From: Gammaproteobacteria bacterium
Lineage (GTDB): Bacteria; Pseudomonadota; Gammaproteobacteria; Steroidobacterales; UBA11654
Assembly: GCA_029941465.1 (NCBI GenBank)
Contig: JAPYQN010000003.1
Span: forward strand, 4,513 to 68,512
DNA length: 64,000 nucleotides
Reading direction: 5' to 3'
Below the pieces are notes generated by a model that was not told the DNA's origin, ran no database searches, and saw only the letters and a list, made by a program, of their open reading frames with translations. The translations under genes were made by a program, and so were the position numbers. Below, piece by piece: positions 16,718 through 47,092 of this stretch (positions are counted from its first letter, which is position 1; every line of letters begins with the position of its first letter).

Positions 16718-16719
16718 AA

Positions 16720-17901: not shown

Positions 17902-18059
17902 CTAAGGACTATTCGATTGAATGATATTACTATTTAGAATCTTCTATTTCCATTGTTACAAAAAGTTACTGTGAGATTAGCTATTAAATAGTGTTTATTT
18001 TTGTTTTTCATCCCTTATAAGTCATAATGGCTGGAAATTTGAGTTTTATTGGAGAGCAA

Positions 18060-19034
18060 ATGACTCAGTTAATGTATATTTTTCCTGGTCAGGGATCACA
18101 ATATAAAGGAATTGGTAAAGATTTATATGAAAGCTATAAGTCGGCAAGAAACATTTACCATCAAGCCAGTGAACTCTTAGGCTACGATCTAGTCGAATTG
18201 TCTTTCAGTGATCAGAAAGAGCAAATTAGCCTTACACGTTACACACAACCAGTGCTTTTTACTCATCAAATAGCTTGCTTGAAGGTTTTTAATGAGTTGA
18301 CTGACAATCAATACACACCTGGTTTGTTAGCTGGACACAGTTTAGGGGAATACACTGCATTAGTAGCAGCAGGAAGTATTAGCTTCGAAGATGGACTTGA
18401 GCTTGTCAACAAAAGGGGTGAATTGATGGGTAATTTTGGGTCAGGATCAATGCTTGCTTTACCTTTCAATCAAGTTGAAAGTGCTGCACTTGCTGAAGAC
18501 TTCGGGTGTCAGGTGGCTACCATCAATTTACAACAACAAACAGTAATTGGTGGAACTGAGTCCAATATTGATCAATTGCAAGAACATATCTTGACACTTC
18601 ATCCTAAAAAAAGAACAGTTAAACTTGATACAGAAGGTGCATTTCATACTGATTTAATGAAGGGCGCAGCAGATGAATTTAAAACAATGCTTGATAGGAC
18701 TCATTTTGGATCATTGAGTGCGCCCGTATTATCAAATTATTCAGCTGATATTCATCAACAAGACGGTAGCTCCACTGCAGATCTTCTCTATCAACAGTTA
18801 TACAAACCAGTTAATTGGTTAGGGTGTATGCAGACCTCATTGATTTATCAAATTGATACCATTATTGAATTTGGTGGGGGGATTGGCAAAGGTGATAAGC
18901 CAGAGGAGAAGAGGCCAAATTTAGAAGCAATGACCAAGAGAAATTTCAGAAGTTTTGAACATCAGATCAATTATTACTCGTCAATCAATGCATCCACTTT
19001 GACTGCAACAGCTAACTCTCTACTTAATTTATGA
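18060..19034 (+). CDS. ACP S-malonyltransferase-like acyltransferase with C-terminal extension
   Basis: FPGQGSQ, GHSLGEYTA and GAFHT motifs of FabD/trans-AT enzymes. Start placed at ATG 18060, preceded by GGAGAG. Not located in a fab cluster. Confidence 0.8.
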   Translation: MTQLMYIFPGQGSQYKGIGKDLYESYKSARNIYHQASELLGYDLVELSFSDQKEQISLTRYTQPVLFTHQIACLKVFNELTDNQYTPGLLAGHSLGEYTALVAAGSISFEDGLELVNKRGELMGNFGSGSMLALPFNQVESAALAEDFGCQVATINLQQQTVIGGTESNIDQLQEHILTLHPKKRTVKLDTEGAFHTDLMKGAADEFKTMLDRTHFGSLSAPVLSNYSADIHQQDGSSTADLLYQQLYKPVNWLGCMQTSLIYQIDTIIEFGGGIGKGDKPEEKRPNLEAMTKRNFRSFEHQINYYSSINASTLTATANSLLNL

Positions 19035-21352: not shown

Positions 21353-21760
21353 TTAATCTTTCTGTTCTAGTTCAATTAAAGTGCCTAAAAAATCTTTGGG
21401 ATGCATAAAAATAACAGGTTTGTTGTGTGCACCAATAGCGGGTTCTTTTGCTCCAACAATGGTTGCTCCTAATGCAATCATCTGGTCTCTGGCCTGGAAG
21501 ATATCATTAACCTCAAAGCACACATGATGCATGCCACCCTTTGGGTGTTTTTTAATAAACGCACTTATGGGTGATTCTTCACCCAAAGGCTCTATCAGTT
21601 CTATCTTGGTATTGGGAAGTTCAACAAAGACAGTGGTGACTCCATGATCAGGCATTGGCACTGGTTCTGAGACTATAGCACCTAGTGTTTCTTTATATAC
21701 CTGGCTGGCATCTTCTAGGTTAGGTACTGCGATGGCAATGTGATTTAATCGTCCTATCAT
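21353..21760 (-). CDS. mce: methylmalonyl-CoA epimerase
   Basis: 135-aa VOC-fold protein (LNHIAIAV...HHVCFEV). Last gene of the propionate operon. Confidence 0.85.
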   Translation of the reverse strand: MIGRLNHIAIAVPNLEDASQVYKETLGAIVSEPVPMPDHGVTTVFVELPNTKIELIEPLGEESPISAFIKKHPKGGMHHVCFEVNDIFQARDQMIALGATIVGAKEPAIGAHNKPVIFMHPKDFLGTLIELEQKD

Positions 21761-22755
21761 TTCATTTTTTCTTTAATTTTTTTTATAACATCAGACAAGA
21801 AACTAGTTTCTTTAATTTCTTGCCACTGTGTTGTCTTTGTCTGGCTAAGTTTATCAATTAAAGTTTCATCTGACTCTATAGCAGCAAGTATAAGATTTTT
21901 TTTCTTATTTTTTAACCAAATTTCATTTTGTCTTTGTCTCTTTTCTTTAAGTTGCCCAGTGTTTATTAGATGATTTTTTAGTTCAAGAATTTGATCCCAG
22001 ACCTCATTAATTCCTTCTTTTTGCAGGGCAGAGCAAGAAAGAATGGGAATAGTCCATTGTTTAATTCTAGGTTTTAGGAGTTTAAGAGCATTTTTGTAAT
22101 CAAGCACTGTGCTTTTAGAAGTTGCTAAAAGATTGCCGTCAGATTTATTGACCACAAGGATATCAGCCAACTCAGTAATTCCTCGTTTTATGCCTTGTAA
22201 TTCATCACCACCGCCAGGACTTAGTAGGACCAAAAAGATATCAGTCATTTCAAAAACTTCAGTTTCAGCTTGACCAACACCAACAGTTTCAATCAAGATT
22301 ACAGAATATCCAGCGGCTTCAAGAATACTTATTGATTCTCTGGTAGATCGGTTAACACCGCCTAAGTTACCTCCTGAAGGAGAAGGCCTAATAAAAGTGT
22401 TTTTACTTCGAGATAAGGACTCCATTCTAGTTTTATCTCCGAGTATAGATCCTCCACTAATACTTGAGCTTGGATCTATTGCCAGAATGGCTAAACACTC
22501 ACCAGTTTCTAAAACTGGGTGGCCTATGGCTTCGATAAATGTTGATTTCCCAACCCCTGGTGGCCCTGATATGCCTATTCTAATACTGTCGTTTGTTGAA
22601 GTTTTAAGTTTGCTCAAGAGTTGTTCAGCTAAGGCTTGATCTTCTTCTTTTGTTGACTCAACTAAGGTGATTCCATTCGCAATGGCTTTTCTATCTCCTG
22701 ATGTGATTGACTGAGCTAATAATTCAATATCTGATGTCTTCAAATTAATCCTCAA
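21757..22755 (-). CDS. meaB: methylmalonyl-CoA mutase-associated G-protein chaperone
   Basis: P-loop GPPGVGKST, ETVGVGQ, NKSD motifs. 4-nt overlap with mce. Confidence 0.85.
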   Translation of the reverse strand: MRINLKTSDIELLAQSITSGDRKAIANGITLVESTKEEDQALAEQLLSKLKTSTNDSIRIGISGPPGVGKSTFIEAIGHPVLETGECLAILAIDPSSSISGGSILGDKTRMESLSRSKNTFIRPSPSGGNLGGVNRSTRESISILEAAGYSVILIETVGVGQAETEVFEMTDIFLVLLSPGGGDELQGIKRGITELADILVVNKSDGNLLATSKSTVLDYKNALKLLKPRIKQWTIPILSCSALQKEGINEVWDQILELKNHLINTGQLKEKRQRQNEIWLKNKKKNLILAAIESDETLIDKLSQTKTTQWQEIKETSFLSDVIKKIKEKMK

Positions 22756-24709
22756 ATTCCAGAATTTTTTGGTCTACTGCTAGGTTAGCGCCTTCTGTTG
22801 TTAATATCGATTTAATTTTAACGTCTTTGCTTGCTCTTAGGCTATTTTCCATTTTCATTGCTTCGACAACTGCTAGCTCTTCTCCGCTTTTAATAGTTTG
22901 CCCTTCCTCTACACAAATTTTCATCAGTAGACCAGGCATAGGTGAGAGCAGATATTTAGAAAGATCAAGCGGAATTTTTTTTGGCATTAAACGATTTAAT
23001 TCTGCAGTTCTTTGTCTAGAAACTAATGCACTGAACACTCTGCCTCTATGAGTGAGTTGATATCCTGGGTATTGATTTTCAATTTGGAAGTAGAGCTCTT
23101 CATCATTAATCTTTATTTGGACTCTAGGATCATTAGGTTGTTTGTTGATAAGAATGTTGTATTCATTTGTTTGCGATATAGCTTTCATTAGTGTGTCTGT
23201 ATCCTCAGTTCTCACAGGTATTTGTTGCTCATTAATTTTTACAGTCCATTGATTGGTAATCATACGGTTTGTTTTTATCCGTTTAAGTTGATCGGTATGA
23301 TAACAGGCCAGAACACAGGCGATTGTTTGTGTTTCGTGTTCAGTTCCAGATTCTCCCTTAAAGCCATCTTGGTATTCCTCAGCAATAAAATTAGTTGTTG
23401 TATTACCCGATTGAAACCTTGTATTTTGCATAATTGAGCTCAAAAAATTAAGATTATGAGAGACCCCTGAAATAACGTATTGATCAATGGCACTCAGCAT
23501 ATACTGAATGGCTTCATCACGCGTATTACCATAGGTAATTAGCTTTGCAATCATAGGATCATAAAACATTGACACTTCGCTGCCCTCTCTGATTCCAGTA
23601 TCAATCCTTACATTCATTGAAGATTTGGGAGTACGATATTTTGTTAGACGTCCAATCGAAGGCATAAATTCCCTATAGGGGTCCTCAGCATATATTCTTG
23701 ATTCAAGTGCCCAACCTGAGGTAGTAATTTTGTCTTGCTGAAGATTTAATGATTCACCTGCAGCAATGGTTATCATTTTTTCGACCAGGTCAATTCCAGT
23801 AACCATTTCTGTAACCGGGTGTTCAACTTGAAGTCTGGTGTTCATTTCCAGAAAATAGAATTGTTGTTCTTTATCAACGATAAATTCAACTGTACCAGCT
23901 GATTCATAGTTGACAGCTTTCGCAAGAGCCACAGCTTGCTCACCCATTTTTATTCTAGTTTTATCACTGATGAAAGGAGAGGGGGCTTCCTCAACAACTT
24001 TTTGATGTCGCCTTTGAATAGAGCACTCTCTTTCCCCAAGGTAAACAGTATTACCTTGTTGGTCTGCCAAAAGTTGTATTTCAATATGGTGTGGCTCAGT
24101 AATGAATTTCTCAGCAAATATTCGATCATCACCAAAGCTTGATAAGCTTTCATTTTTCGCATGTTCAAAACCATCAAGACATTCTTGGTCATTATTAACA
24201 ACTCTCATGCCTTTACCACCGCCACCAGCACTGGCTTTCAGCATCACCGGATAACCAATATCATTTGCCACCTTTACCGCCTCTTCACTATCTTTTATTG
24301 CTTTTGTAAATCCAGGGATAACATTGACCCCAACTTTCTCAGCGATCTTCTTTGATTCGATCTTATCGCCCATGCTGACAATGGCTTCGCTCTTGGGTCC
24401 TATGAAGACGATATTGTTTTTTTCTAAGGTCGTAGCAAAATCATCATTCTCTGACAAGAAGCCATAACCTGGGTGTACAGCTTCAGCACCACATTCGAGG
24501 CATGCTTTTATGATTTTATCTATAACAAGATAACTTTCTGAAGCAGTTGAGCCACCAATACAAAATGATTCATCAGCCAAATCAACATGCATGGCATTCG
24601 CATCTTCATCAGAATAAACCGCAACTGTTTTAATACCCATATCCTTACAAGTTTTAATGACTCGACAGGCAATTTCACCGCGATTGGCAATGAGTATTTT
24701 ATTAAACAT
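22745..24709 (-). CDS. pccA: propionyl-CoA carboxylase alpha subunit (biotin carboxylase + BCCP)
   Basis: N-terminal MFNKILIANRGEIA, ATP-grasp region, C-terminal biotinylation site EAMKME. Context with pccB and the mutase. Confidence 0.9.
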   Translation of the reverse strand: MFNKILIANRGEIACRVIKTCKDMGIKTVAVYSDEDANAMHVDLADESFCIGGSTASESYLVIDKIIKACLECGAEAVHPGYGFLSENDDFATTLEKNNIVFIGPKSEAIVSMGDKIESKKIAEKVGVNVIPGFTKAIKDSEEAVKVANDIGYPVMLKASAGGGGKGMRVVNNDQECLDGFEHAKNESLSSFGDDRIFAEKFITEPHHIEIQLLADQQGNTVYLGERECSIQRRHQKVVEEAPSPFISDKTRIKMGEQAVALAKAVNYESAGTVEFIVDKEQQFYFLEMNTRLQVEHPVTEMVTGIDLVEKMITIAAGESLNLQQDKITTSGWALESRIYAEDPYREFMPSIGRLTKYRTPKSSMNVRIDTGIREGSEVSMFYDPMIAKLITYGNTRDEAIQYMLSAIDQYVISGVSHNLNFLSSIMQNTRFQSGNTTTNFIAEEYQDGFKGESGTEHETQTIACVLACYHTDQLKRIKTNRMITNQWTVKINEQQIPVRTEDTDTLMKAISQTNEYNILINKQPNDPRVQIKINDEELYFQIENQYPGYQLTHRGRVFSALVSRQRTAELNRLMPKKIPLDLSKYLLSPMPGLLMKICVEEGQTIKSGEELAVVEAMKMENSLRASKDVKIKSILTTEGANLAVDQKILEFED

Positions 24710-24712
24710 ATT

Positions 24713-26257
24713 CTATAAAGGAATATTGTCGTGTTTACGCCATGGGTTGGTTTGTTGTTTATCCTTTAGCATGTCAAATGAACGGCATAATTTCTCTCTA
24801 GATCGATGGGGCAATATCACATCGTCTATGAAACCACGACTAGCTGCAATAAATGGATTAGCAAATTTTTCCCTATATTCTTCGGTTCTTTTTTGAATCT
24901 TTTGTTCATCACCAATGTCTTTTCTAAAGATAATCTCGACCGCACCTTTTGGTCCCATCACAGCAATTTCTGCAGATGGCCAGGCAAAATTCACATCACC
25001 TCTGATGTGTTTTGAACTCATAACATCATAAGCTCCACCATAAGCTTTTCTGGTGATTAATGTCACTTTTGGGACGGTGGCTTCAGCGTATGCAAAAAGT
25101 AGTTTAGCACCATGTTTTATGATACCGCCATGTTCCTGAGAGGTTCCTGGCATGAATCCTGGAACGTCAACTAGAGTGAGTAGGGGGACATTAAACGCAT
25201 CACAGAAGCGGACAAATCTAGCTGCTTTTATTGATGAATCTATATCAAGACATCCAGCTAACACCATCGGCTGATTACCTACAACACCAACCGTAGTACC
25301 GTTCAATCTAATAAAACCAATAACAATGTTTTGTGCATAATTAGGTTGTATTTCAAAAAATTCTCCCTCATCACCGAGCTTATGAATCACTTCTTTCATA
25401 TCATAGGGTTTTGCAGGATCTTGTGGCACTAAGGTATCAAGGGATGTTTCTTCCCTATCCATTGGATCTTGATTCTCAATTACAGGTGGTTTCTCTCGAT
25501 TATTTTGTGGCAAAAAACTCATGAATTCACGGGTCATTAATAATGCTTCTGTATCATTCTCAAAAGTAAGATCAGCGACACCAGATTTTTTACTATGTGT
25601 CGAAGCTCCACCAAGTTCTTCTGCCGAAACTTCTTCATGGGTTACAGTTTTTACGACATCAGGGCCTGTGACAAACATATAAGAACTGTCTTCAACCATA
25701 AAAATAAAATCTGTCATGGCTGGTGAATATACTGCACCACCTGCACACGGACCCATGACTAAGGAGATTTGTGGCACTACTCCTGAAGCTAGGACATTGC
25801 GCTTAAACACCTCTGCATAACCACCCAAAGAAACAACGCCTTCTTGGATCCTAGCACCACCAGAATCATTCAACCCAATTAAAGGCGCGCCGTTTTGCAT
25901 TGCATGGTCCATTACTTTGCATATTTTTTCAGCATGAGTTTCAGATAATGAGCCACCAAACACAGTAAAATCTTGACTAAATACATAAACTAAACGCCCG
26001 TTTATTTTTCCGTACCCGGTGACCACTCCATCACCAGGAATTTTTTGTTCTTCCATGCCAAAATCAACTGCTCGGTGTTCAACCAAGGTGTCTAATTCTT
26101 CGAATGTACCTTCATCAATTAAGATATCAATTCTCTCTCTAGCAGTCAGCTTACCTTTGGCATGCTGTTTCTGAATTCGTTCTTCGCCACCACCCAAGCG
26201 GGCAGCTTCTTTTCTTTTTTCTAATTCTTTTATATTTCCTTTCATGCTTTTATTCAA
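24713..26257 (-). CDS. pccB: propionyl-CoA carboxylase beta subunit (carboxyltransferase)
   Basis: 514-aa carboxyltransferase with typical blocks ([18 protein letters not shown]). Confidence 0.9.
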
Positions 26258-28370
26258 TTAAATCTAGGACTTTAAGAGCGGCTTTTGCAATATTTGTACC
26301 CGGTCCAAAAACTGCTCCTACACCTATAGATTCAAGTTCTGGTATGTCCTGCTTAGGAATGATTCCTCCGCAAACAATCAGTATGTTTTCTGCATTCTGT
26401 TCCTTAAGTGCCTCTATTAACATTGGCACTAAGGTTTTGTGAGCAGCAGCTTGTGTTGATACACCAAGAATATGCACATCATTCTCAATTGCTTGTTTAG
26501 CAGCTTCTTCAGGCGTTTGAAATAATGGGCCAATATCTACATCAAAGCCCATATCAGCAAAGGCAGTCGCAATAACTTTGGCCCCACGATCATGCCCATC
26601 TTGACCCAATTTGACCACCAGAATTCTTGGTCTTCGGCCGTTAGCAGAAGAAAAGTTAGCAATTTTTTCTTCAATGTTCATAAATTCATCGTCCCCTTCA
26701 TATTCACTACGATACACACCACTTATTGAGCGGGCTACTGCTTGATGCCTACCAAACACATTTTCCATGGCTTGGGAAATTTCTCCCACTGTGGCTCTAG
26801 TTTTTGCAGCTTCAATGGCTACCTCTAAAAGGTTGCCGCCATTTCGTGCTGTTGACTCTATGTTTTCAAGAGTCTGTTGGCACCTCTCTTCATCACGTGA
26901 TTCTTTAATTGTTTTTAGTTTATTGAGTTGTTGTTCTCTGACATCTTGGTTATCAATGGATAAGATGTCGACAACTTGCTCATTCGAAGAAAAGTAGTCA
27001 TTTACGCCAACAATAATTTCTTCTTTTTTTTCAATTTTTGCTTGTCTAATTGCAGCAGACTCTTCGATTCTGAGTTTTGGAACACCGGCCTGAACAGCTT
27101 TTGTCATTCCCCCAAGTTCCTCAACTTCATCGATAAGCTTTCGGGCTTCTTTAATAATTGATCCAGTCAATGATTCAACATAATATGACCCTGCAAGTGG
27201 ATCGACAACTTTTGTTAACCCAGTCTCCTCCCTAAGTACCAGCTGAGTGTTTCTTGCAATTTCTGCTGAGAAAGGGGTTGGCAAGGCAAGCGCTTCATCA
27301 AATGAGTTTGTATGTAAGGATTGAGTTCCCCCAAGGACTGCAGCCATAGCTTCGATGGTGGTTCGAACAATATTATTGTATGGGTCCTGACTCGTTAAGC
27401 TTACTCCAGAAGTTTGACAGTGAGTTCTTAACATCAAGGATTTTGGATTTTTTGGTTTGAATTCTTGCTCAATTAATTCAGACCATAGGACTCTTGCCGC
27501 TCTGAGCTTCGCAATTTCCATAAAGAAATTCATCCCAATACCAAAAAAGAATGACAACCGAGGAGCAAATGAATCGACATCAAGATCTTGGTTTTTAGCA
27601 GCTCTTACATATTCAAGTCCATCAGCAATGGTATAGGCTAATTCTTGGGTACAAGTAGCACCCGCTTCAAGCATGTGATATCCAGAAATAGAAACAGAAT
27701 TAAATAAAGGAAGTTGTTTAGAGCAATAGGCAATAATGTCTGCCACAATCCTCATTGAATCCTCAGGTGGGTAGATATAGGTATTCCTCACCATAAATTC
27801 TTTTAATATATCGTTTTGCAAAGTTCCTTTAAGCACCTCTTTTGCCACACCTTGTTCCTCTGCCGCAACAATGAACATTGCCATTATGGGTATTACTGCC
27901 CCATTCATGGTCATCGAGACTGACATTTTATCTAGCGGTATTTGATCAAATAAAATCTTCATATCTTCGACACTGTCTATAGCAACACCTGCTTTCCCGA
28001 CATCGCCTGGAACCCTTGGATGATCTGAGTCGTACCCCCTGTGTGTGGCTAAATCAAAAGCTACAGAGAGCCCTGTTTGACCTGCAGATAAATTATCTCG
28101 GTAAAACTTATTTGATTCTGCTGCCGTAGAAAATCCAGAGTACTGCCTAACAGTCCAAGGTCTTTTGCTGTACATTGTGGCTCTTGGGCCTCTCAAGAAT
28201 GGTGGGAACCCAGGTAAGTTGTTTAAATGTTCCAGTTCCATAAGATCATCCGCCGTATACAGCGGTTTCACTTCTATGCCCTCTAGAGTATTCCAGTTAA
28301 GCGATTCAGTGTTGTCACCCTTGAGTTCTTCAGCGGCTTTTTCTTGCCATTTTTTATCTATTTTTCCCAT
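26250..28370 (-). CDS. scpA: methylmalonyl-CoA mutase, single-chain B12-dependent form
   Basis: 706 aa. Mutase TIM-barrel blocks ([23 protein letters not shown]) and a C-terminal B12-binding DGHDRG motif. Confidence 0.9.
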
Positions 28371-28548: not shown

Positions 28549-29586
28549 ATGAAATTAGGAATGGGATTAGGCTACTCTCCAGCCAAGCTTGAAATACCAA
28601 TGGATGATATTTTAGCTGCTGAGGAATTTGGGTTTGAATCAGTTTGGGCTGCAGAATCATATGGCTCAGATGCAGTTTCTGTTGCCGCTTATGTTTTGGC
28701 TTCCACATCAACAATAAAAGTCGGTACAGCAATTATGCAAATGCAAGCCAGAACACCGACTATGACAGCAATGACAGCTATGTCATTAAATGCTCTTTCG
28801 GATAACCGCTTTCTTTTAGGGCTTGGCCCATCTGGACCCCAAGTTGTTGAAGGATGGTATGGGCAACCTTATGGAAGGCCTCTGACCAGAACAAAAGAGT
28901 ATATTTCCATTGTTAGAAAGATTATTGAGAGAAAGGAGCGCTTAGTTCATGAGGGATACCATTATCAGATCCCTTATACTGGAGAAGGCTCATCAGGATT
29001 AGGTAAACCGCTAAAAAGTATTTTACATAGCACTGACGATCTAAAAATTTATACCGCCTCTATTACCCCTGCAGGATTGAGATGTGCAGGAGAAGTGGCC
29101 GATGGTGTTTTTCCGATTTGGATGAACCCAGAAAAGTTTGATCTTATTGGTCAATATGTAGAGGAAGGTTTCCAGAAGGCTGCAGAAGATAAAAGTTATG
29201 ATGGCTTTGATGTTGCACCATTTGTTCCTGTGGCTATGGGTGACGTTGATTTTTGTACCATGGCGATGAAACCAATGTTTGCACTATATATTGGAGGCAT
29301 GGGTGCAAAATCAAAAAATTTTTATAATGACTATGCTAAAAGACTAGGTTACGAGGAAGCCGCAGAAACTATCCAAGATCTTTATCTATCTGGAAAAAAA
29401 GAAGAAGCCATAATGGCAGTGCCTAATGAGCTAGTTGATGAATGTGCACTCATTGGCCCCCCAGAAAGAATTAAGGAAAGACTACAGTCATGGAAGGCTC
29501 TTGATAAAACTGGGAAGATTGGTACTTTGGTTCTAGGAAATGCCAATAAGAAATCCATGGAAGTCATAGCTAATGAAGTGTTTTAG
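28549..29586 (+). CDS. luciferase-like monooxygenase (LLM) class, probable F420-dependent oxidoreductase
   Basis: 345 aa. The blocks FESVWAAESYGSDA, RTPTMTAM, LGLGPSGPQVVEGWYG match my recollection of the actinobacterial F420-dependent LLM subfamily. F420 biosynthesis genes lie 2 kb away. Confidence 0.7.
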   Translation: MKLGMGLGYSPAKLEIPMDDILAAEEFGFESVWAAESYGSDAVSVAAYVLASTSTIKVGTAIMQMQARTPTMTAMTAMSLNALSDNRFLLGLGPSGPQVVEGWYGQPYGRPLTRTKEYISIVRKIIERKERLVHEGYHYQIPYTGEGSSGLGKPLKSILHSTDDLKIYTASITPAGLRCAGEVADGVFPIWMNPEKFDLIGQYVEEGFQKAAEDKSYDGFDVAPFVPVAMGDVDFCTMAMKPMFALYIGGMGAKSKNFYNDYAKRLGYEEAAETIQDLYLSGKKEEAIMAVPNELVDECALIGPPERIKERLQSWKALDKTGKIGTLVLGNANKKSMEVIANEVF

Positions 29587-29598: not shown

Positions 29599-29991
29599 AT
29601 GAACTACACCAGCTATTTTAGATTTCTTATCTTGGCACCCATGGCAATGGTTTTTTTAGCTGTGGCGCTTGATTTTTCTTATGCCTTTCCAGAGTCTGTT
29701 AATGGATACTATGGACAAACGGCAGTGGAGGGCTATAGTCGCCTCTATTATGCCTATCTCCTCTTGGCTGTGATGGCATTTATTGCTGATTTAATGATGC
29801 TGTTTTTCATCAGTCATTCCAGAGAAATCTGGATACTTCTTATTTCTGCCTTTTATATTGTGGCTTCTCTGATGCCTGAGTTAACTATCATGTCGCCTTT
29901 CTCAATTGTATTGGTTCAAATTGCTTCGTTAATGGCAGGACTTAAAATTTCTTTGGCTTACCTGTCTCCACCAATAAGAGACTTATTCTGA
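29599..29991 (+). CDS. small four-helix membrane protein, unknown function
   Basis: About 130 aa and hydrophobic throughout. Follows the LLM gene directly (GTG at 29587 abuts its stop; ATG at 29599). Confidence 0.5.
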   Translation: MNYTSYFRFLILAPMAMVFLAVALDFSYAFPESVNGYYGQTAVEGYSRLYYAYLLLAVMAFIADLMMLFFISHSREIWILLISAFYIVASLMPELTIMSPFSIVLVQIASLMAGLKISLAYLSPPIRDLF

Positions 29992-30011: not shown

Positions 30012-30920
30012 CTATGATTTCTGGAAGTAAAATTGTCTCCAAAACTTTAATCCTAAGACAAGAGAGAGTATCCAGATAATAAATTCAACCCAGTTTGGAT
30101 TGCTGTTGTAACCAAAAAATCCCTTTAAGAAAACACCAAATCTTCCCTTATCATGCAAAAGATGTGTGAATTTACCTTTGTCATTTAAGTCATAAGAATA
30201 AAATGATGGGTTATTCATTTCATTGAGTTCAGTTTTGGGCTGTAAAACGTCCCAAACTCGAGTAATTTGACTTTTATTATCAAGACCAACCCAATTCAAA
30301 TGGTCACCTTTAACAAGAAATTCTTCGGCTTCATGGCTGCCATAAGCAATCATTCCTGAAGCAAATAACACGAGTAAAAATGTCGTGGCTCTGAAAAATA
30401 ATCGAAGATCAATCCTTCGTCCTTGCATCACAATTAAGTAGCCAATCACGACAGCTATAAGCATTCCCATTACAAAACCAAGGTAGGAGAAGGTGCCCAG
30501 CATTGAGAAACTTCCCATTAGAAATATCACTGTTTCGAAGCCTTCCCTTAAAATTGCAAAAAACACAACTAAAAACACCCCCCAACCTGATGTTGCTATA
30601 GCTTGTTTAGTCTGGTCTTCCAAAGCATCTCTATCACTGACATGCTTAGATAGCCAAAAAATAACATACCAAAGCAGACCCGCAGTAATGAACATAAAGA
30701 CAGCTTCAAAAAGAGCAGTGTATGAGGCATTACCAACTGACTGTTTTATATCATTTAGAATCACCGCAACTATGACGCTAGCAATTAATGCAGCGATGAC
30801 ACCTAACCAGAGTTGTTTAATTTCTTTTATTAGATTATTTTTTTCTAGAAGAGTGAAAATTATTCCAACAATCAGACATGCTTCTAGGCTTTCTCGAAAA
30901 ACAATAATAAATTCATTCAT
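30012..30920 (-). CDS. FTR1-family high-affinity iron permease with C-terminal extension
   Basis: Two REXXE motifs (FRESLE, LREGFE) in TM helices. Start placed at MNEFIIVFRESLE (ATG 30920). A Fur box lies upstream. Confidence 0.75.
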   Translation of the reverse strand: MNEFIIVFRESLEACLIVGIIFTLLEKNNLIKEIKQLWLGVIAALIASVIVAVILNDIKQSVGNASYTALFEAVFMFITAGLLWYVIFWLSKHVSDRDALEDQTKQAIATSGWGVFLVVFFAILREGFETVIFLMGSFSMLGTFSYLGFVMGMLIAVVIGYLIVMQGRRIDLRLFFRATTFLLVLFASGMIAYGSHEAEEFLVKGDHLNWVGLDNKSQITRVWDVLQPKTELNEMNNPSFYSYDLNDKGKFTHLLHDKGRFGVFLKGFFGYNSNPNWVEFIIWILSLVLGLKFWRQFYFQKS

Positions 30921-31010
30921 GGTTAACAATTCCTGGTAATCAGAAAAGGAGAGCAAGAGAAACTTTCGGTTGAAGGTTAAGGATTGTTAATCTTGCTTTC
31001 CTAATTAATA

Positions 31011-31028
31011 GAAATGATAATCATTTCC
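31011..31028 (-). promoter_or_regulatory. Fur box
   Basis: GAAATGATAATCATTTCC contains the perfect palindrome AAATGATAATCATTT and matches the AATGATAATCATT core of the GATAATGATAATCATTATC consensus. Lies 55-90 nt upstream of the iron permease start. Confidence 0.65.
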
Positions 31029-31201
31029 ATTTAGGAATCATACCTATCTTTTCATTCAGATCAAATTTCTGTCCTAAAATAAAAGTACGGTAGCAGAATA
31101 TTAGTGTTGTGAGAGTTTGACGATGCGTATCATTGTATTCTTAATTATAGGCATTGCACATTCCAAGGTGATTAAGGTTGAGTGTTGCCATGGAAAAAGA
31201 A

Positions 31202-33559
31202 CTAATAAGCTGGATGGGCACTGTTCAAAAATAATTCCATCCCATCAATAGTTTCATAATCACTATTTAATAATTCATTATAAAGTGTGTCTCTTAGTGC
31301 AGGGGATCTTTGTGCTTTTTTAATAAATTCTTCCATTTTTACCGGTGCAAACTCCTGTCCATGGATACTGCCCGCAGCTTTAGAAATAGATTCATTCATT
31401 AATGTTCCACCCATATCATTAACGCCAGCGTTAAGGCAACTCTCAGCTCCTTTAGGACCTAATTTAACCCAACTAACCTGTATGTTTTGAATGTGCGGAT
31501 GAAGAGTCAATCTTGAAACTGCATGCATTAAGAGAACTTCCCTAAACGTTGGACCTGGTCGGGCATCTCCTCTTTTATACATCGGTGATTCCATACTAAC
31601 GAAAGGTAGAGGTATAAATTCTGTTATGCCTTGAGTTTCTTTTTGAAGTTCTCTTAGCTTGACTAAATGCGTAGACCAATCTTTCACTGATTCTTGATGA
31701 CCAAACATAATGGTTGAGGTGGTATTAATACCCACTCGATGAGCAGTTCTAATAACATCCAACCATTCTTCTGATTTGAGCTTGTCTGGACAAATATGTT
31801 GCCTGACTCGATCATCAAGTATTTCAGCAGCAGTCCCCGGCATTGTTTTTAATCCTGAATCTTTTAAGAGTAGAAGGAAATTCTCTACGGACATATCCAT
31901 CGTTGAAGCACCATGCTGTATTTCAAGTGGTGAGAATGCATGGATGTGTATTTCAGGTACTTTCTTCATAATCGCATTACAAATATTGATGTATGTTTTT
32001 CCATCAAAATGTGGATGTATCCCACCCTGAAGACACACCTCAGTAGCTCCTCTATTCCATGCTTCATAAGCACGGTTAGCAATTTCATCGAAGGATAATA
32101 GGTAAGGTTTACCTCTTAGATTTTCCTTGGTTTTGCCCTTTGAAAAAGCACAAAAATGACATGTGTATTTACATATGTTGGTGTAGTTAATATTTCTGGT
32201 AATCACATAGCTAACTTTATCTCCATTAACCGCTTTCCTTAACTCATCAGCTTTGTTCAATACAAAATGAAGATCATCGCCTCTGCTTTGAAATAGTGTT
32301 GTAATTTCATCATGATTAAGATCTGTTTTAGAAAAGGCTTTTTCAATAATTTGATGAATATTTTCATTATTGGTATCAACTGCTTTGCTCCAGATTTGGT
32401 GATTACCAGATGAAGGAATATTTTTAGACTCTCCGCATCGCCAATCATTATCCCTTCCATACCCTTGTGTGTTAGATTGCTCATAAACATAGGGCTTCAA
32501 TTGATTATCAAACCAGTTCCCGTCAAGATACTCTGGATAGACAGCTAATCTTTCTTTTAGTTCAAAGCCTTTATTATTAGTGGCTAGTTTCAGTAATTCT
32601 AAATTAGGCCATGGTGATTCTGGATTAACATGGTCTTGGGTTACTGGCGACACACCTCCCCAATCATTAATGCCAGAATCTATGACGTCAGGCAGTGATC
32701 CCATGTTTAGATTTGGTGGGCATTGGAGGTTCATTGAAGTTCCAAATATGAGTCTTGTCATCGACAAGGTCCACAGTAAATCTTCTTTTGTAGGTGCCGG
32801 TGTATTTCTCATCTTGGTGTCTGGCTTAGGGATAAAATTCTGCACAATAATTTCTTGAATGTGTCCATACAAGTCATGGAGTTTTTTTATCTCCAGAAGA
32901 CTTTCTAATCTTTCTGTCCTGGTCTCCCCAATACCGATTAATATTCCTGTGGTTACCGGTATATTGGCTTTGCCCAAATTTTCGATTGTACTTAGCCTTA
33001 ACTCAGGGTTTTTATCAGGAGAGCCAAAGTGAGGGCCACCTTTCTCACAAAGCCTTGTTGATGAGGACTCAAGCATAATTCCCATGGAAACCGAAACCTC
33101 TCTTAATCGTTTTATTTCCTCAAGATTCATGGTTCCTGGGTTAAGGTGTGGAAGCAGACCCGTTTCTTCAATAACAAGTTTGGACATGTCATATAGGTAG
33201 TCAATGGTGCTTTGATAGCCTAAGTATTTAAGGTCATCCTTTGCTGCTTGGTATCTAAGTTCAGGTTTTTCACCTAGAGTAAATAATGCCTCTTTGCATT
33301 GATGTAGCGCTCCTTTTTTAGCAATGTCTAACACTTCATTTGATCTTAAATAAGGGTGTGCAAGTTTTCTTGGAACCTTTGCAAAGGTGCAATAATGACA
33401 AACATCTCGACACAACATTGTCAGTGGTATAAACACTTTTTTTGAAAATGTAATGGGCGTGCCTTTTTGATCACGGAGAATCCTTGCTTTCTCCATCAAT
33501 TCATTTAAGGGTGTTGATTCACCAATTTTTTTAAAATAAGAAAGTGAGTCGTTTTTCAT
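31202..33559 (-). CDS. fbiC: bifunctional FO synthase (CofG + CofH domains), 7,8-didemethyl-8-hydroxy-5-deazariboflavin synthase
   Basis: 785 aa with two radical-SAM CxxxCxxC sites (CRDVCHYC near the N-terminus, CKYTCHFC mid-protein). Sits in a cofCDE context. Confidence 0.9.
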   Translation of the reverse strand: MKNDSLSYFKKIGESTPLNELMEKARILRDQKGTPITFSKKVFIPLTMLCRDVCHYCTFAKVPRKLAHPYLRSNEVLDIAKKGALHQCKEALFTLGEKPELRYQAAKDDLKYLGYQSTIDYLYDMSKLVIEETGLLPHLNPGTMNLEEIKRLREVSVSMGIMLESSSTRLCEKGGPHFGSPDKNPELRLSTIENLGKANIPVTTGILIGIGETRTERLESLLEIKKLHDLYGHIQEIIVQNFIPKPDTKMRNTPAPTKEDLLWTLSMTRLIFGTSMNLQCPPNLNMGSLPDVIDSGINDWGGVSPVTQDHVNPESPWPNLELLKLATNNKGFELKERLAVYPEYLDGNWFDNQLKPYVYEQSNTQGYGRDNDWRCGESKNIPSSGNHQIWSKAVDTNNENIHQIIEKAFSKTDLNHDEITTLFQSRGDDLHFVLNKADELRKAVNGDKVSYVITRNINYTNICKYTCHFCAFSKGKTKENLRGKPYLLSFDEIANRAYEAWNRGATEVCLQGGIHPHFDGKTYINICNAIMKKVPEIHIHAFSPLEIQHGASTMDMSVENFLLLLKDSGLKTMPGTAAEILDDRVRQHICPDKLKSEEWLDVIRTAHRVGINTTSTIMFGHQESVKDWSTHLVKLRELQKETQGITEFIPLPFVSMESPMYKRGDARPGPTFREVLLMHAVSRLTLHPHIQNIQVSWVKLGPKGAESCLNAGVNDMGGTLMNESISKAAGSIHGQEFAPVKMEEFIKKAQRSPALRDTLYNELLNSDYETIDGMELFLNSAHPAY

Positions 33560-33597
33560 AGATTATTTATAGCTTTTTAGTAACGCGTTCACAATGA

Positions 33598-34227
33598 CTA
33601 TTTCCGAATCTCATAGAATTGATTTAAAGCAAGATCGCTCTCACTATTTCTATCGATTAAATCTTTCCAATCTTCAACATCATCTAGGTCAAAACTCAAG
33701 CCTTCTATTTGGAGTTCATTTGTTTGAATTCCAAGGCTTTCAGCTGTCCTTATATGCTTCTCAAAACTGTGCTTACCAAATTGAAATCTCATCAAATAAG
33801 ACAGATCAATAATTAATGCATTGGTGCCCCCATCTTTTTTTGCTTCCACTATTGTTAACCCTTTTGTGTGTTGATTGAGAAGCTCTATCAAATCATTTTT
33901 TTCAGCAAAGGGAAGATCGATGGAAACATATAGCATTTGTTTTACGCCTTGTTGATAGAGCCAATCAGCTGTTAGGTTTATATTTTCTTTTAGATCAATA
34001 GAAGTCTTGTCTTTGCGATGGATAATTTTATTATTGTGGTAAGTTTTGACCCATTTTGATTCATTGGTCAACAACACAATTTTTTCTATTTCTGGAATAT
34101 TAGTTAAATTGTTAATCATTCGATCAGCCATCATTTTAGTTAGTTCAATTCTTTTATTTTGATCTAAGATCTTTGATAACCGAGTCATGGTCTTTAGGAA
34201 ACTATTAATAGGAATGACTGCCCACAT
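33598..34227 (-). CDS. cofC: phospho-acid guanylyltransferase of F420 biosynthesis (CofC/FbiD)
   Basis: 209 aa with MWAVIPIN start, DGGTNAL, FGKHSFEKH and DLDDVEDW blocks characteristic of CofC. Confidence 0.8.
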   Translation of the reverse strand: MWAVIPINSFLKTMTRLSKILDQNKRIELTKMMADRMINNLTNIPEIEKIVLLTNESKWVKTYHNNKIIHRKDKTSIDLKENINLTADWLYQQGVKQMLYVSIDLPFAEKNDLIELLNQHTKGLTIVEAKKDGGTNALIIDLSYLMRFQFGKHSFEKHIRTAESLGIQTNELQIEGLSFDLDDVEDWKDLIDRNSESDLALNQFYEIRK

Positions 34228-34239
34228 AACTGATTTTAT

Positions 34240-35187
34240 TTATGATATGTGATCAATAAAATGAATGACATCTTCTGCGACACGTTTTTTGTCATCATCA
34301 TTGTTCATCATAATCTCTGAGAGTTTAACCTGTATTCCCATTGATTCTATCTGTCCTACATAGTCTTGATCAGAAGTATCAATGACGATTCCATCTATAT
34401 AGTCCTTATAATGTTGAGCTATTGTTAACACATTAGTTTCTAAACCTAGTTCATCCATGATTTTAGTGGTGGGTCCTTTGACACTCTGTCCATTAATTAT
34501 AGGTGAAACTGCGACTCTGGGATGTTTAGATTCTGTGATGGACTGTCTTATCTTTTCAATAGACAGTATTGGATCTATGCTGAGATAAGGATTAGATGGA
34601 CATATAACAATGCCCTTTAAGTCAGGGTCCATTAATATTTCAGTAACTTCAGCAGAAGGTTCTGGGTTTTTACTTTTAAATGAAATATTTTTAATCTTGG
34701 GCTTATTAGCTTGTTTTACAAAATATTCTTGGAATGACAGTAACCCTTTATTGGTATCAACGACTGTTTGGATCATGTGATCACTCATTGGTAATACAGT
34801 TGCTTTTAAATGGAAGCGATTAGCGATGTCTTGCGTAATCGATGTTAACCGTTCTCCGTTTCTTAATGCTTTTGATCGATGAAGGTGCAAGGCTAAATCT
34901 TTATCTCCAAGTTTAAACCAATTATCAGCGCCAAGTTCACCTAGTACATTATGAGTTTTCCATGTCTCATCTGCTCTTCCCCAGCCTGTTTCAGTATTAT
35001 TTACTCCAGCCAAGGTGTATACCAATGTATCGACATCTGGAGCAATATAAAAGCCAAGATATAAGAAATCATCTCCGGTATTGGTGATGAAGTATAATTC
35101 TTCTGGTGCACAAATTTGATGTAGGCCTAAACCTAATTTAGCACCTCCAACACCCCCACTAAGAGCTATAATTTTTCCACTAGCCAT
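34240..35187 (-). CDS. cofD: 2-phospho-L-lactate (or analogue) transferase CofD/FbiA
   Basis: LSGGVGGAKL N-terminus and CofD-typical blocks. I prefer the ATG at 35187 (MASGKII) over the TTG at 35193 of the ORF track. Confidence 0.9.
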   Translation of the reverse strand: MASGKIIALSGGVGGAKLGLGLHQICAPEELYFITNTGDDFLYLGFYIAPDVDTLVYTLAGVNNTETGWGRADETWKTHNVLGELGADNWFKLGDKDLALHLHRSKALRNGERLTSITQDIANRFHLKATVLPMSDHMIQTVVDTNKGLLSFQEYFVKQANKPKIKNISFKSKNPEPSAEVTEILMDPDLKGIVICPSNPYLSIDPILSIEKIRQSITESKHPRVAVSPIINGQSVKGPTTKIMDELGLETNVLTIAQHYKDYIDGIVIDTSDQDYVGQIESMGIQVKLSEIMMNNDDDKKRVAEDVIHFIDHIS

Positions 35188-35189
35188 GT

Positions 35190-35975
35190 TCAACGAAATA
35201 GATCTTCTTCTTTTGGTCTAATTAAATCATCGACGGTATCAGAATCTGATGGCATATCAATGCCTTTAACCAGAACAATTGGTTTTCCTTCATTACTTTC
35301 TCCCATAATTAGTGTGGCAGAAGAGGCTATTTGATCTGCCAAACCAATAACAGTTGTTTGAAGTTCACGACCAAATAAGTCAGTGCCTTTTTGTCTTAAA
35401 TCAACTATTGTTTTTACACCAGATGCTCCGATAGCATGCCCAATCGTACCTAATCTCCAAGGTCTTCCTATACTATCAGTAATGATAACCCCTATTGTTT
35501 TACCGGTTTGAATCTCTATGTATTCTTTAATCTTTTTAGCTGATTCATTTGGGTTCTTGGGTAGTAATAAAACGGTTTCTTTGCCTGGTTTATGATCTAT
35601 ATTCGACTGATCGATACCAGCGTTAGCAAGTATGTGTCCCAGACGATGTTCAACAATGATTACACCTTTTTTAATTCTGATAATTTCTTTAGATTCTTGA
35701 ATAATCAATTCAACTAATCGTGGGTCCTTGTCTGTTTTTTCTGCTATTTTTATTGATTCATTAGAGGGAGTAATGGTTTCTAAATCAACTAAACAGCCTT
35801 CAGCTTTGGAGATTATTTTCTGAGCTATAACAACGATGTCATTGTCTTCTAATTCAAGAGAATCTTTGTTCATAGATTTAAGAATAATTTCTGCAATGTC
35901 ATCATTCTCTTTAATTGAAGGCACATGATTTAGTGCTGACACTTCAAGTTTGCTAATAGCCAATTTAAAGCTCAT
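35190..35975 (-). CDS. cofE: coenzyme F420-0:L-glutamate ligase (ligase domain only)
   Basis: 261 aa with CofE blocks (VVIAQKIISKAEG, NAGID.SN, DS.GRPWR.G). No C-terminal nitroreductase-like domain. Confidence 0.85.
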   Translation of the reverse strand: MSFKLAISKLEVSALNHVPSIKENDDIAEIILKSMNKDSLELEDNDIVVIAQKIISKAEGCLVDLETITPSNESIKIAEKTDKDPRLVELIIQESKEIIRIKKGVIIVEHRLGHILANAGIDQSNIDHKPGKETVLLLPKNPNESAKKIKEYIEIQTGKTIGVIITDSIGRPWRLGTIGHAIGASGVKTIVDLRQKGTDLFGRELQTTVIGLADQIASSATLIMGESNEGKPIVLVKGIDMPSDSDTVDDLIRPKEEDLFR

Positions 35976-35994
35976 GAAATTATTACGCGTCAGG

Positions 35995-36651
35995 CTAATG
36001 CGAGGTAATTTTGATACCCGACGATTTTAATTTATGGTTTTTATTGATCACAATAAGAACAGATGTTAGAGCTTCAGCTGCTGCTGAGTTTTCTAGACCA
36101 CCTGCATACCAACATTTAAGACCAAGACAACCAAGTAAAGACATAACTGTTTCAGCAGATTCTTTATTATTTCCAGTGACTAAAACTTCTGCTTTAATAG
36201 TATCCTTTGAGTCAATCAGGTGTGAGCCAATATTTTGCAGAGCTGCAACAATTTCAACCTCGGTACCAAGGATTCTTTGGGCTTCCATTGCTGCTGAGCC
36301 AATTGCTGGTAATTGAACTTTTGTAACCATTTTTTGCAGTGGTACAGTTGTATCAATCAAGATTTTGCCTTTAAGATCTTCCTTAACTAAATTAAGAGTA
36401 TCAGCATGACTTGAATAAGGCACTGTTAAAACAGAAATATCAGATTCTCTTGCTGCTGTTTTCGAATCCAATCCTTGGATATTACTTACATTGAGTTCTG
36501 CGTTAACTTGTGTTGCTATTTTTTGAGCTTTTACAGGGTCTCTGGACCCAATTAATATTTCATATCCAGCTATAGCCCACTTTTTTGTTAAAGCTGAGCC
36601 TAAGGCTCCAGTTCCACCTAAAATTCCAATTTTTCTAATTTTATCAATCAT
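35995..36651 (-). CDS. npdG: NADPH-dependent F420 reductase (Fno/NpdG)
   Basis: [15 protein letters not shown] Rossmann start, about 218 aa. ATG at 36651 lies 8 nt inside the 3' end of ilvD. The ORF-track start at 36687 would overlap ilvD further. Confidence 0.85.
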
Positions 36652-38497
36652 GTTTCTTTTCCTCAGGAACAATTCTAACAGCTCCATCAGAGGCAGAAGC
36701 AGCCATCAATGCATAGGCTTTCAATGCTTGGCTAACAACCCTATTCCTAGCTCTGGGTTTCCATGCCTTAGAACCTCCACTCTTCATTAGCACCCTTCTT
36801 TGTTCAATTTCTTCAGGTAATAAATCAACATTTATAGTTCTTTTAGGTATGTCTATATTTATTATGTCACCGTCTTCTACCAAAGCAATATTCCCTCCAG
36901 ATGCAGCTTCAGGAGATATGTGACCAATGGATAAACCTGAAGTGGCTCCTGAGAATCTTCCATCAGTGATAAGAGCACATTTTTTCCCTAAGCCTTTTGA
37001 TTTTAGATAACTGGTCGGGTAAAGCATTTCTTGCATGCCAGGTCCGCCTTTAGGGCCCTCATAACGAATAAGCACAACATCACCAGGTTCTATGGCATTA
37101 TTTAGAATGGCCTCGACTGCTTCATCTTGACTTTCAAATATTCTTGCAGTTCCACTAAAGATAAGATTACTTTCATGCACACCTGCAGTTTTTACTATGC
37201 ATCCTTCTTCAGCAATATTGCCTTTAAGTACAGCTAATCCTCCGTCAGTGCTGTATGCATTATCTGTGTTTCTAATACACCCTGTTTCACGATTAAGATC
37301 CAATTTTTCAAAACGTTTATTTTGTGAAAAGGGTTCAATTGTTGGAATCATACCTGGTGCAGCCGAGTAGAACTTTTTAATTTTATCACTGGGATTACGA
37401 TTAATATCCCATTGCTCAATGGCTTTTTCTAATGAAGAAGAATGGACAGTTTTTGTTTCAGTATTTAGTAATTTTGCTTTTTCTAGTTCACCTAAAATTG
37501 CCATTACGCCTCCAGCACGATGCACATCTTCTAGATGAAATTGACTGCTTGGAGCGACTTTACACAAATTTGGAACTCGTCTTGATAATCGATCGATGTC
37601 ATTAATTGTAAAATTGATGTTTCCCTCTTTAGCCGCAGCTAAAATATGTAGGACAGTGTTGGTTGAACCACCCATCGCTATATCTAAGGTCATGGCATTT
37701 TCAAATGCTTCTTTACTAGCAATATTTCTTGGAAGCACTTGTTCATTGTCTTCTTCATAATATGCTTTGGTGATTTCAACAATAAGCTTCCCAGCTTTTA
37801 GAAATAAGTCTTTTCTATCAACATGTGTTGCTAAAACACTCCCATTACCTGGGAGTCCGAAGCCTAAGGCTTCAACAAGACAATTCATGGAATTAGCAGT
37901 AAACATTCCAGAGCATGAACCGCAAGTTGGGCAAGCAGATCGTTCTACGTTCTCAAGATCTTCGTCTGAAATCGAGTCATCAGCAGCCAGACCCATAGCA
38001 TCCACTAAATCTAATGTTGTTTCTTTACCTTTAATAAAACTCTTACCCGCTTCCATTGGGCCACCTGAAACAAAGATTGTTGGAACGTTTAAACGCATTG
38101 TGGCCATTAACATTCCTGGGGTTATTTTGTCACAGTTTGAAAGACATACTAAGGCATCAGCACAATGCGCATTAACCATGTATTCAACTGCATCTGCTAT
38201 GAGTTCTCTTGAGGGAAGACTATATAACATGCCTGAATGACCCATAGCAATTCCATCATCAACAGCTATAGTACTGAATTCTTTTGCTACTCCCCCAGAT
38301 TTGTCTATTTCTCGAGCCACCATTTGCCCCAAATCTTTAAGATGAATATGACCAGGAACAAACTGAGTAAAAGAATTAGCTATAGCAATTATAGGTTTCC
38401 CAAAATCGTTATCTTTCATTCCCGTGGCACGCCATAATGCTCTGGCGCCGGTCATATTTCTCCCGTGCGTTGATGTTTTCGATCTATAATCAGGCAT
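36644..38497 (-). CDS. ilvD: dihydroxy-acid dehydratase
   Basis: 617 aa. N-terminus [27 protein letters not shown]...[19 protein letters not shown] is nearly identical to enterobacterial IlvD. Confidence 0.95.
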
Positions 38498-38633
38498 ATT
38501 TGTAACTTTTTATTTGTATTTATCCTATGGTTAATATTATCTCATTTCTGCAAAACAATTATAATTCTCATGGTACAGTAGTCTCTATAAATTTTAGTGA
38601 ATCGTTGTTATTAAAATATTTGGACCAACTAGG

Positions 38634-46126: not shown

Positions 46127-47092
46127 ATGATAGATTTCAAAGAACTAAGTGATTCGCTTACTGGCAAGGTTAGAGGTAATCCAGTTGCAATAAGCCTATT
46201 TGAAGAAGTAATCCCAGAAGTTTATCAGAAGAAGAAAGTTGTTCCTTGTTCCATCGTTAGACATGCGATGGATAAGGGTGAAATAGTTTCATTTGATAAA
46301 CATCATCATGATTGTACAACCGGTGTTTATACAGCAGGTGTTCATGAGGGCACTGAAGAAATCAGAACAGGGCAATATCTTGCACAAAATATTCCTGCAT
46401 ATACCGATCTAGGGGCAGAGAAAATTAAAACTGGAGAATATATACTGCCACAAAACACAGTTGTAGGAATTGGTGCAGCTCCTCTTTCAGAGGTACCTTC
46501 AGGCATTCATGTTGATTGGATAGTCGTGGTTTGCACACCTCATTGGGCTAATTTCATTGGTGGAGCTCGGACAGTTTTAGACGGTACACCGCCTCGAGGG
46601 GCTGCCGGCTCTTCTTTCTGTAGCGACCTTTTTGCAACGCCATGGCATGATGGAAATGTTGTTATTACCCCAGGTGATCTAGGTGGTCGGATGAATAATC
46701 GTCTAAAACCTGAGGAAATGTTTGTGGTTGTACCAAATAAATATTTAGAAAGTTTGCTTAGCATCATGACTACAACGCCAGATGCAAGAGCTGTTCTTGA
46801 AGCCACTAAACCAGAAGAATCAGAATATTGGGATAAGAGAAAAAGAGCCAAGAAGGCTAAAGCAAAAAAACAGAATGATGAGCCTACGAACAATGATTTT
46901 GAATCAAAACTCAGCATGACTTGGGATCAAGAATCAAAAGACATCATTGCCATGACGCCTCCAGGAATTATTGAGATGGCGATAAATAATGTAGAGGATT
47001 TTGCAAGAGATAAGGGTATTGAACAAATTACCAAATCAGTGGTTATGGACCAAATGCAAAGCGTTGGCATGGATCCAAGCATGCTAAATTAG
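46127..47092 (+). CDS. DUF169-like protein with Lys-rich linker and PCP_red-like C-terminal domain
   Basis: The N-terminal ~230 aa have a DUF169-like pattern of Cys/Gly. Linker KRKRAKKAKAKKQ. C-terminus MTWDQESKDIIAMTPPGIIEMAINNVEDFARDKGIEQIT resembles the BchB/ChlB C-terminal domain. Confidence 0.5.
   Translation: MIDFKELSDSLTGKVRGNPVAISLFEEVIPEVYQKKKVVPCSIVRHAMDKGEIVSFDKHHHDCTTGVYTAGVHEGTEEIRTGQYLAQNIPAYTDLGAEKIKTGEYILPQNTVVGIGAAPLSEVPSGIHVDWIVVVCTPHWANFIGGARTVLDGTPPRGAAGSSFCSDLFATPWHDGNVVITPGDLGGRMNNRLKPEEMFVVVPNKYLESLLSIMTTTPDARAVLEATKPEESEYWDKRKRAKKAKAKKQNDEPTNNDFESKLSMTWDQESKDIIAMTPPGIIEMAINNVEDFARDKGIEQITKSVVMDQMQSVGMDPSMLN

Follow-up and report, generated by a model that had tools for sequence, protein, structure and literature searches.

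Biosynthesis of coenzyme F420 has been described for mycobacteria, in which the FbiABCD proteins convert phosphoenolpyruvate (PEP) to F420 through dehydro-F420-0; for archaea, in which CofC, CofD, CofE, CofG, and CofH build the cofactor from 2-phospholactate; and for Mycetohabitans (Paraburkholderia) rhizoxinica, whose gene cluster yields 3PG-F420 from 3-phospho-D-glycerate (3-PG). Among Alphaproteobacteria, Paracoccus denitrificans and Oligotropha carboxidovorans are demonstrated producers of F420 (PMC8498797). Here, we describe a locus of an uncultured marine gammaproteobacterium, located at positions 31202 to 38497 of a 64,000-nucleotide (nt) stretch of contig JAPYQN010000003.1 (hereafter, the window). 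In this locus, six consecutive minus-strand open reading frames (ORFs) lie head to tail, namely, ilvD, fno, cofE, cofD, cofC, and a fused fbiC. They very likely represent a functional, vertically inherited chromosomal F420 operon. This reading is based on scores above curated cut-offs, kept catalytic residues, purifying selection, conserved gene order and overlap, an adjacent gene for a luciferase-like (LLM) oxidoreductase, and the lack of a minus-strand terminator-like site between the genes.

The locus shares features with each of the described systems. The alphaproteobacterial operon of Chelativorans sp. J32 (locus L008) has the same order (fno-cofE-cofD-cofC-fbiC), a single-domain CofE, and a fused FbiC; likewise, there was no nitroreductase among its flanking ORFs that were tested, and an LLM-family gene lies nearby (17412 to 18371 of that locus, plus strand; a few kilobases downstream of the operon). 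However, its proteins are only 22 to 57% identical to those of the window (22 to 28% for CofC), ABC transporter genes take the place of ilvD upstream, and its LLM-family gene had no tblastn match to the window LLM at an E value of ≤1e-5. The mycobacterial pathway has the fused FbiC and step-by-step homologous enzyme families in common with the window, whereas the window CofE lacks the C-terminal nitroreductase domain and the window CofD is closer to archaeal CofD than to FbiA. The Mycetohabitans cluster is also proteobacterial, with a single-domain CofE and without a reductase gene in the cluster, as in the window operon. Finally, the archaeal pathway shares the single-domain CofE, and the window CofD and CofE score best to solved archaeal structures; in contrast to separate CofG and CofH, the FO synthase of the window is fused, and all genes, fno among them, lie in a single operon.

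Gene content and conservation of the operon

Genes were assigned using the curated (equivalog) cut-offs of the individual NCBIfam models, with Pfam as a second check. The six genes, all on the minus strand, are as follows (aa, amino acids).

36644-38497, minus strand: ilvD, dihydroxy-acid dehydratase, 617 aa (NF009103, 1131 bits versus a cut-off of 710; Pfam ILVD_EDD_N and ILV_EDD_C)
35995-36651, minus strand: fno/npdG, NADPH-dependent F420 reductase, 218 aa (TIGR01915, 164 bits versus a cut-off of 150)
35190-35975, minus strand: cofE, F420-0:L-glutamate ligase, single domain, 261 aa (TIGR01916, 269 bits versus a cut-off of 181)
34240-35187, minus strand: cofD, phospho-acid transferase, 315 aa (TIGR01819, 281 bits versus a cut-off of 257)
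33598-34227, minus strand: cofC, phospho-acid guanylyltransferase, 209 aa, a divergent clade variant (TIGR03552, 125 bits versus a cut-off of 105)
31202-33559, minus strand: fbiC, fused CofG and CofH FO synthase, 785 aa (NF006687, 1052 bits versus a cut-off of 1018)

An independent gene call in record GCA_029935935.1 (contig JAPOGP010000476.1) gave identical protein lengths. With pathway steps assigned by family membership rather than by assay, FbiC would make the deazaflavin FO, CofC would activate a three-carbon phospho-acid with GTP, CofD would move the phospho-acid onto FO, the single-domain CofE would attach the gamma-glutamyl tail, and Fno would pass hydride between NADPH and F420.

The individual proteins carry the features expected for these steps. 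The best solved relatives of Fno were the Fno proteins of Thermobifida fusca (5N2I, 103 bits) and Archaeoglobus fulgidus (1JAX). The Pfam domain F420_ligase, at residues 18 to 238 of 261, was the sole domain of CofE, which lacks a PF00881 (nitroreductase family) domain; its nearest solved structures were archaeal CofE (2PHN and 2G9I) and 7ULD. In CofD, the motifs NTGDD and PDVDT align with the metal ligands D45 and D57 of Mycobacterium smegmatis FbiA, so that the catalytic ligands are kept. The CofG and CofH halves of FbiC (residues 37 to 357 and 415 to 762, respectively, as delimited by NCBIfam) each contain one radical-SAM CxxxCxxC motif, starting at C50 and C463. In CofC, the Mg-binding Asp triad and the acid-binding residues are kept (D104, D180, D182, T135, G151, and S154), and these positions (D116, D188, D190, T148, G163, and S166 in Mycobacterium tuberculosis [Mtb] FbiD) are invariant or nearly so in 62 sequences.

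A preliminary description of this stretch, made from its letters, had placed the five F420 genes (fno, cofE, cofD, cofC, and fused fbiC) at these coordinates. All five exceeded the NCBIfam cut-offs, and Pfam agreed, so that the profile hidden Markov model searches support each of the F420 assignments. Pfam also upheld its view that CofE consists of the ligase only, with no nitroreductase partner in the operon. The spacing that it gave for the remaining genes, 2 to 38 nt, can be read directly from the sequence: from fno through cofE, cofD, and cofC to fbiC, the gaps are 19, 2, 12, and 38 nt, where an alternative TTG start of cofD at 35193 would replace the 2-nt gap with a TTGA overlap of the cofE stop. 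While the operon it described stands, the preliminary description overlooked a gene next to it:

28549-29586, plus strand: LLM oxidoreductase of the Rv3520c subfamily, predicted to be F420 dependent (TIGR03559, 366 bits versus a cut-off of 335)

The best solved relatives of this protein were Mer enzymes. Its identity across the clade was 85 to 97%, including 85% where that of CofC fell to 46 to 48%, and its ratio of nonsynonymous to synonymous substitution rates (dN/dS) was 0.035 to 0.058 against the related loci L001 and L002, a range shared with aceE and ilvD. Judging from its subfamily, the LLM protein is likely a consumer of F420, that is, the probable user of F420H2 in the proposed pathway. 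Because this F420-dependent LLM gene is adjacent and strongly conserved, it supports F420, and not just FO, as the product.

Related loci were identified by a CofD scan, with one genome kept per species. Close relatives were detected only in metagenome-assembled genomes labeled "uncultured Woeseia sp." and in an assembly labeled "uncultured gamma proteobacterium" (contig AG-435-A22); some relatives carry the label "Gammaproteobacteria bacterium." More distant copies were found by the same scan in Alphaproteobacteria, including Chelativorans sp. J32. In eight of the related loci (L001 to L004, L009, L011, L012, and L014), the order was conserved as aceE (divergent), ilvD, fno, cofE, cofD, cofC, fbiC, and efeU, continuing with the LLM gene and a small ORF on the opposite strand and then methylmalonyl-CoA mutase. 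The lowest identities across these loci were 46% for CofC and approximately 80% for IlvD. The five F420 genes are under purifying selection (dN/dS, 0.07 to 0.28 against L001 and L002, with synonymous divergence [dS] of approximately 0.31 to 0.43). The GC content of these genes, both overall and at third codon positions, matches that of their neighbors and thus gives no sign of recent transfer.

The order fno-cofE-cofD-cofC-fbiC also occurs, without ilvD, in the alphaproteobacterial loci L006 and L008 (25 to 57% identity). Because these loci share the five-gene order, the module is of a known proteobacterial type, and it is the join to ilvD that is specific to this gammaproteobacterial lineage. 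The preliminary description, which treated F420 as established for only a few proteobacterial lineages, was correct that the operon is real but missed the same order in Alphaproteobacteria, which lowers the novelty of the locus. With this locus, predicted F420 use reaches a widespread group of planktonic marine Gammaproteobacteria; genes of the clade recur in the Tara, ENA, and JGI marine assemblies, in clusters with up to 360 member sequences.

The ilvD/fno junction and transcription of the operon

The join between ilvD and the F420 genes, together with the region upstream of ilvD, comprises the following features.

36644-36651, minus strand: fno start codon (ATG) and ilvD stop codon overlapping by 8 nt (ATGATTGA), by direct sequence reading
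38498-38633, minus strand: divergent aceE/ilvD intergenic region, likely promoter region of the ilvD-F420 unit (sigma-70-like matches, suggestive)

The junction reads ...GAGGAAAAGAAACATGATTGA, with the fno ATG at 36651 to 36649, the ilvD TGA at 36646 to 36644, and a GAGGA sequence 8 nt upstream. The preliminary description had noted that the fno ATG lies 8 nt inside the 3' end of ilvD; this was confirmed, and the 8-nt overlap was present in all eight related loci listed above. The window and the eight loci fit the pattern ATGNNTRR, in which the stop codon is TGA, TAG, or TAA, and all have a purine-rich run resembling a Shine-Dalgarno (SD) sequence 7 to 10 nt upstream. What is conserved at the junction is therefore its geometry and not its sequence. 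Since the overlap has been kept through the use of all three stop codons and a decrease in CofC identity to 46%, the join is an old, maintained arrangement, and the F420 genes are permanently attached to ilvD in this lineage. The locus thus provides a clean natural case of a cofactor operon joined to a housekeeping gene.

From the overlap geometry and its conservation, translational coupling of fno to ilvD can fairly be inferred; the 8-nt overlap probably ties fno translation to the termination of ilvD, and transcription of the F420 genes probably begins at the ilvD promoter. The two best minus-strand sigma-70-like matches (10 of 12 positions) lie at 38689 to 38661 and 38587 to 38558; the number of promoter-like sites was no higher than in shuffled sequence, and this placement of the promoter is only suggestive. 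Counts of terminator-like sites likewise did not exceed those in shuffled sequence, and the scan detected no minus-strand terminator-like site between the operon genes. Rfam and tRNA scans revealed no riboswitch near the operon, their sole match being a tRNA-Arg at 2733 to 2809.

Alternatively, the overlap might be incidental, with the F420 genes expressed independently from a promoter of their own in the 3' end of ilvD. Weak minus-strand promoter-like matches do occur inside ilvD and fno, although in numbers not greater than in shuffled sequence. Independent expression is unlikely, given that eight relatives have retained both the overlap geometry and the SD-like run despite changes of stop codon and identities as low as 46% (CofC) and approximately 80% (IlvD).

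The missing step and the side chain precursor

Several observations weigh against the interpretation of the locus as a functional F420 operon with the structure given above. The first concerns the start of fno, for which ORF structure alone would also allow a longer ORF beginning at 36687. This longer form lacks an SD-like sequence, and its 12 additional residues would precede the Rossmann strand, at which canonical Fno proteins start, without such extra residues. The second concerns a missing step. We found no nitroreductase-family (PF00881) gene in the 64-kb window (all ORFs of at least 100 aa, except short ORFs overlapping longer ones on the other strand or in another frame), in the annotated 20-kb neighborhoods of the relatives, or among the tested flanking ORFs of L003, L004, and the Chelativorans locus. 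Bacteria have no known source of 2-phospholactate, the hypothetical kinase CofB having been identified in no organism (PMC6450877). With neither a reductase nearby nor such a source, either route to F420 has one step without an assigned gene. The third is that the window CofC lacks the alpha-phosphate-contacting lysine found in all solved homologs; because of this loss, its chemistry may differ in detail.

Judged by the CofC residues discussed below, the side chain most likely derives from the 2-phospholactate/PEP class of precursors, giving classical F420 and not 3PG-F420. Within this class, PEP, with a reductase encoded elsewhere, and 2-phospholactate are almost equally likely entry substrates, PEP being only marginally favored. 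CofC assays do not discriminate the two compounds (PMC8764529). CofD matches Methanosarcina mazei CofD with 188 bits, compared with 139 bits for M. smegmatis FbiA, and CofE is closest to solved single-domain structures, which leans weakly toward an archaeal-like route. No CofD residues that separate the PEP type from the 2-phospholactate type are described in PMC7253369, and overall similarity was the only measure available for that comparison. The preliminary description had left the choice among 2-phospholactate, PEP, and 3-PG entirely open. That choice is now narrowed, with 3-PG unlikely on account of Gly151 of CofC, while PEP and 2-phospholactate are not separated by sequence. Concerning CofC itself, the earlier identification was correct but overlooked the unusual lysine pattern of the clade.

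A related possibility is that CofC and CofD make dehydro-F420-0 from PEP and that the end product is either left unreduced, with dehydro-F420-n serving as the cofactor, or is reduced by an enzyme outside the nitroreductase family. Such a route would fit a CofE without a nitroreductase domain and the lack of PF00881 genes in the window and in the annotated neighborhoods of the relatives; PEP is universal, whereas 2-phospholactate has no known bacterial source (PMC6450877), and the cognate CofC/CofD of the Gram-negative "Ca. Entotheonella factor" favors PEP (PMC8764529). However, dehydro-F420 is reportedly less stable (PMC8764529), and a stand-alone FbiE-type reductase may be encoded elsewhere in the genome, for which Thermomicrobium provides a precedent (PMC8498797). 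The LLM protein was considered as the missing dehydro-F420 reductase and rejected as the main explanation, because its Rv3520c-type subfamily (TIGR03559) also occurs in mycobacteria, where it coexists with the FbiB reductase domain. On balance, we regard an unreduced product or an unrelated reductase as distinctly unlikely. All Proteobacteria with this type of operon share the same known gap, in that either the enzyme reducing dehydro-F420 or the supply of 2-phospholactate is unaccounted for; cultured Alphaproteobacteria are easier systems in which to close it, and in this respect the locus opens no new question.

The lysine pattern of CofC is the sole feature of the locus that departs from what is known. 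Residues were placed by alignment to the solved structures 7P97, 6BWG, and 2I5E. Seven of the eight PEP-contact residues of Mtb FbiD are retained in the window CofC, which has N8, M14, and K80 in place of K, K, and N. Position 8 is equivalent to Mtb K17, one of the eight reported PEP-contact residues, and the lysine at position 14 (MycB3 K26, Mtb K23, and Mmaz K13, that is, M. mazei; atom NZ) contacts the alpha-phosphate of the bound product (Table S1 of PMC8764529). The window protein thus has Asn and Met at the K17 and K23 equivalents of Mtb FbiD and lacks the K13 equivalent of M. mazei CofC; the Chelativorans CofC, unlike that of the window, retains K8, K14, and N80. Throughout the marine clade, position 8 is Asn, position 14 is Met, Leu, or Phe, and position 80 is an invariant Lys. 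Among the 144 nearest CofC sequences outside the clade, position 14 is Lys in every case; Lys or Arg occupies position 8 in 142, and Asn or Ser occupies position 80 in 129, with Lys there in only 1. Apart from these positions, the active site of the clade CofC is intact. The clade forms an isolated branch: among 1.84 billion representatives, two were matched at an E value of ≤1e-30, and the next relatives were at most 35% identical.

On the simplest reading of these substitutions, the positive charge would have been relocated to Lys80, the residue next after the substrate-lining Leu79. A more far-reaching proposal is that the rewired CofC, in the context of no nearby reductase, uses a different phospho-acid or reaction geometry and leads to an undescribed F420 side chain variant or route, which we consider quite improbable. 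In either case, mutating this variant would be a simple way to test how GTP and the phospho-acid are positioned by CofC.

The same alignment bears on whether CofC could activate 3-PG as in Mycetohabitans rhizoxinica, in which case a reductase would be unnecessary. The operon resembles that of Mycetohabitans in having no reductase, and by the family profile, the 3-PG enzyme (7P97, 100 bits) outscored both M. mazei CofC (76 bits) and Mtb FbiD (72 bits) as a match to the window CofC. However, Ser162 of the Mycetohabitans enzyme is diagnostic for 3-PG activation, with contributions from M91, C95, and H145 (Hasan et al., PMC8764529), and its replacement by a residue other than Ser or Thr abolishes the 3-PG preference (PMC8764529). 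The window CofC has Gly151 at the Ser162 position and Leu79, Ile83, and Gly133 at the M91, C95, and H145 positions, all of the non-3-PG type. Gly151 is shared by 62 of 62 sequences (59 from the marine clade and 3 alphaproteobacterial) and by 143 of 144 more distant representatives. This invariant Gly at the Ser/Thr position makes a 3PG-F420 producer very improbable.

That the locus mainly supplies FO, for example, as a photolyase antenna, with no F420 being made is hardly credible: FbiC by itself would suffice for FO and nothing specific favors the idea, whereas the intact cofC, cofD, cofE, and fno are all conserved and evolve under purifying selection, an F420-dependent LLM gene adjoins the operon, and family scans of the window ORFs found no photolyase gene in the 64 kb.

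Neighboring genes and other features of the window

Two further genes lie between the LLM gene and fbiC.

29599-29991, plus strand: small ORF (about 130 aa) with a hydrophobic product, immediately following the LLM gene (translation; no Pfam or NCBIfam match)
30012-30956, minus strand: efeU/FTR1-type iron permease, a conserved neighbor 245 nt downstream of fbiC (Pfam FTR1, 137 bits)

The small ORF adjoins the LLM gene in all relatives. We considered and rejected the possibility that this ORF of 134 codons encodes a small oxidoreductase, as the product is a hydrophobic membrane-type protein without a family match. The efeU gene is downstream of fbiC in all relatives, with variable insertions between the two genes in some. 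The interval is 245 nt in the window (30957 to 31201) and spans 12197 to 16209 in L003, 14001 to 16906 in L004, and 13038 to 16897 in L009; in the relatives, this variable spot is occupied either by a TonB-dependent receptor gene and small ORFs or by genes for an S15 peptidase and an FAD_binding_4 oxidase.

On the far side of the LLM gene and divergent from it, a complete cluster for the conversion of propionyl-CoA to succinyl-CoA (21353 to 28370, minus strand) encodes a glyoxalase-fold epimerase-like protein, MeaB, the propionyl-CoA carboxylase alpha and beta subunits, and methylmalonyl-CoA mutase. A second F420 user may be the PNPOx-fold protein encoded at 2834 to 3397 (plus strand), with a weak match to the F420-dependent PPOX class TIGR03618 (30 bits versus a cut-off of 79). 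Elsewhere, two tandem Rieske/VanA-type oxygenases, an unassigned 299-aa ORF, and an FAD-dependent monooxygenase are grouped at 13524 to 17901 (minus strand), in what looks like a small cluster for the oxidation of aromatic or methylated compounds. Two 771-aa proteins, both with DUF5916, are encoded at 19031 to 21346 and 51851 to 54166 (both plus strand) and may be paralogs. Additionally, a DUF169 protein encoded at 46127 to 47092 (plus strand) has a C-terminal extension of approximately 100 aa that weakly resembles the C terminus of protochlorophyllide reductase subunit B (E = 7e-5, far below the cut-off).

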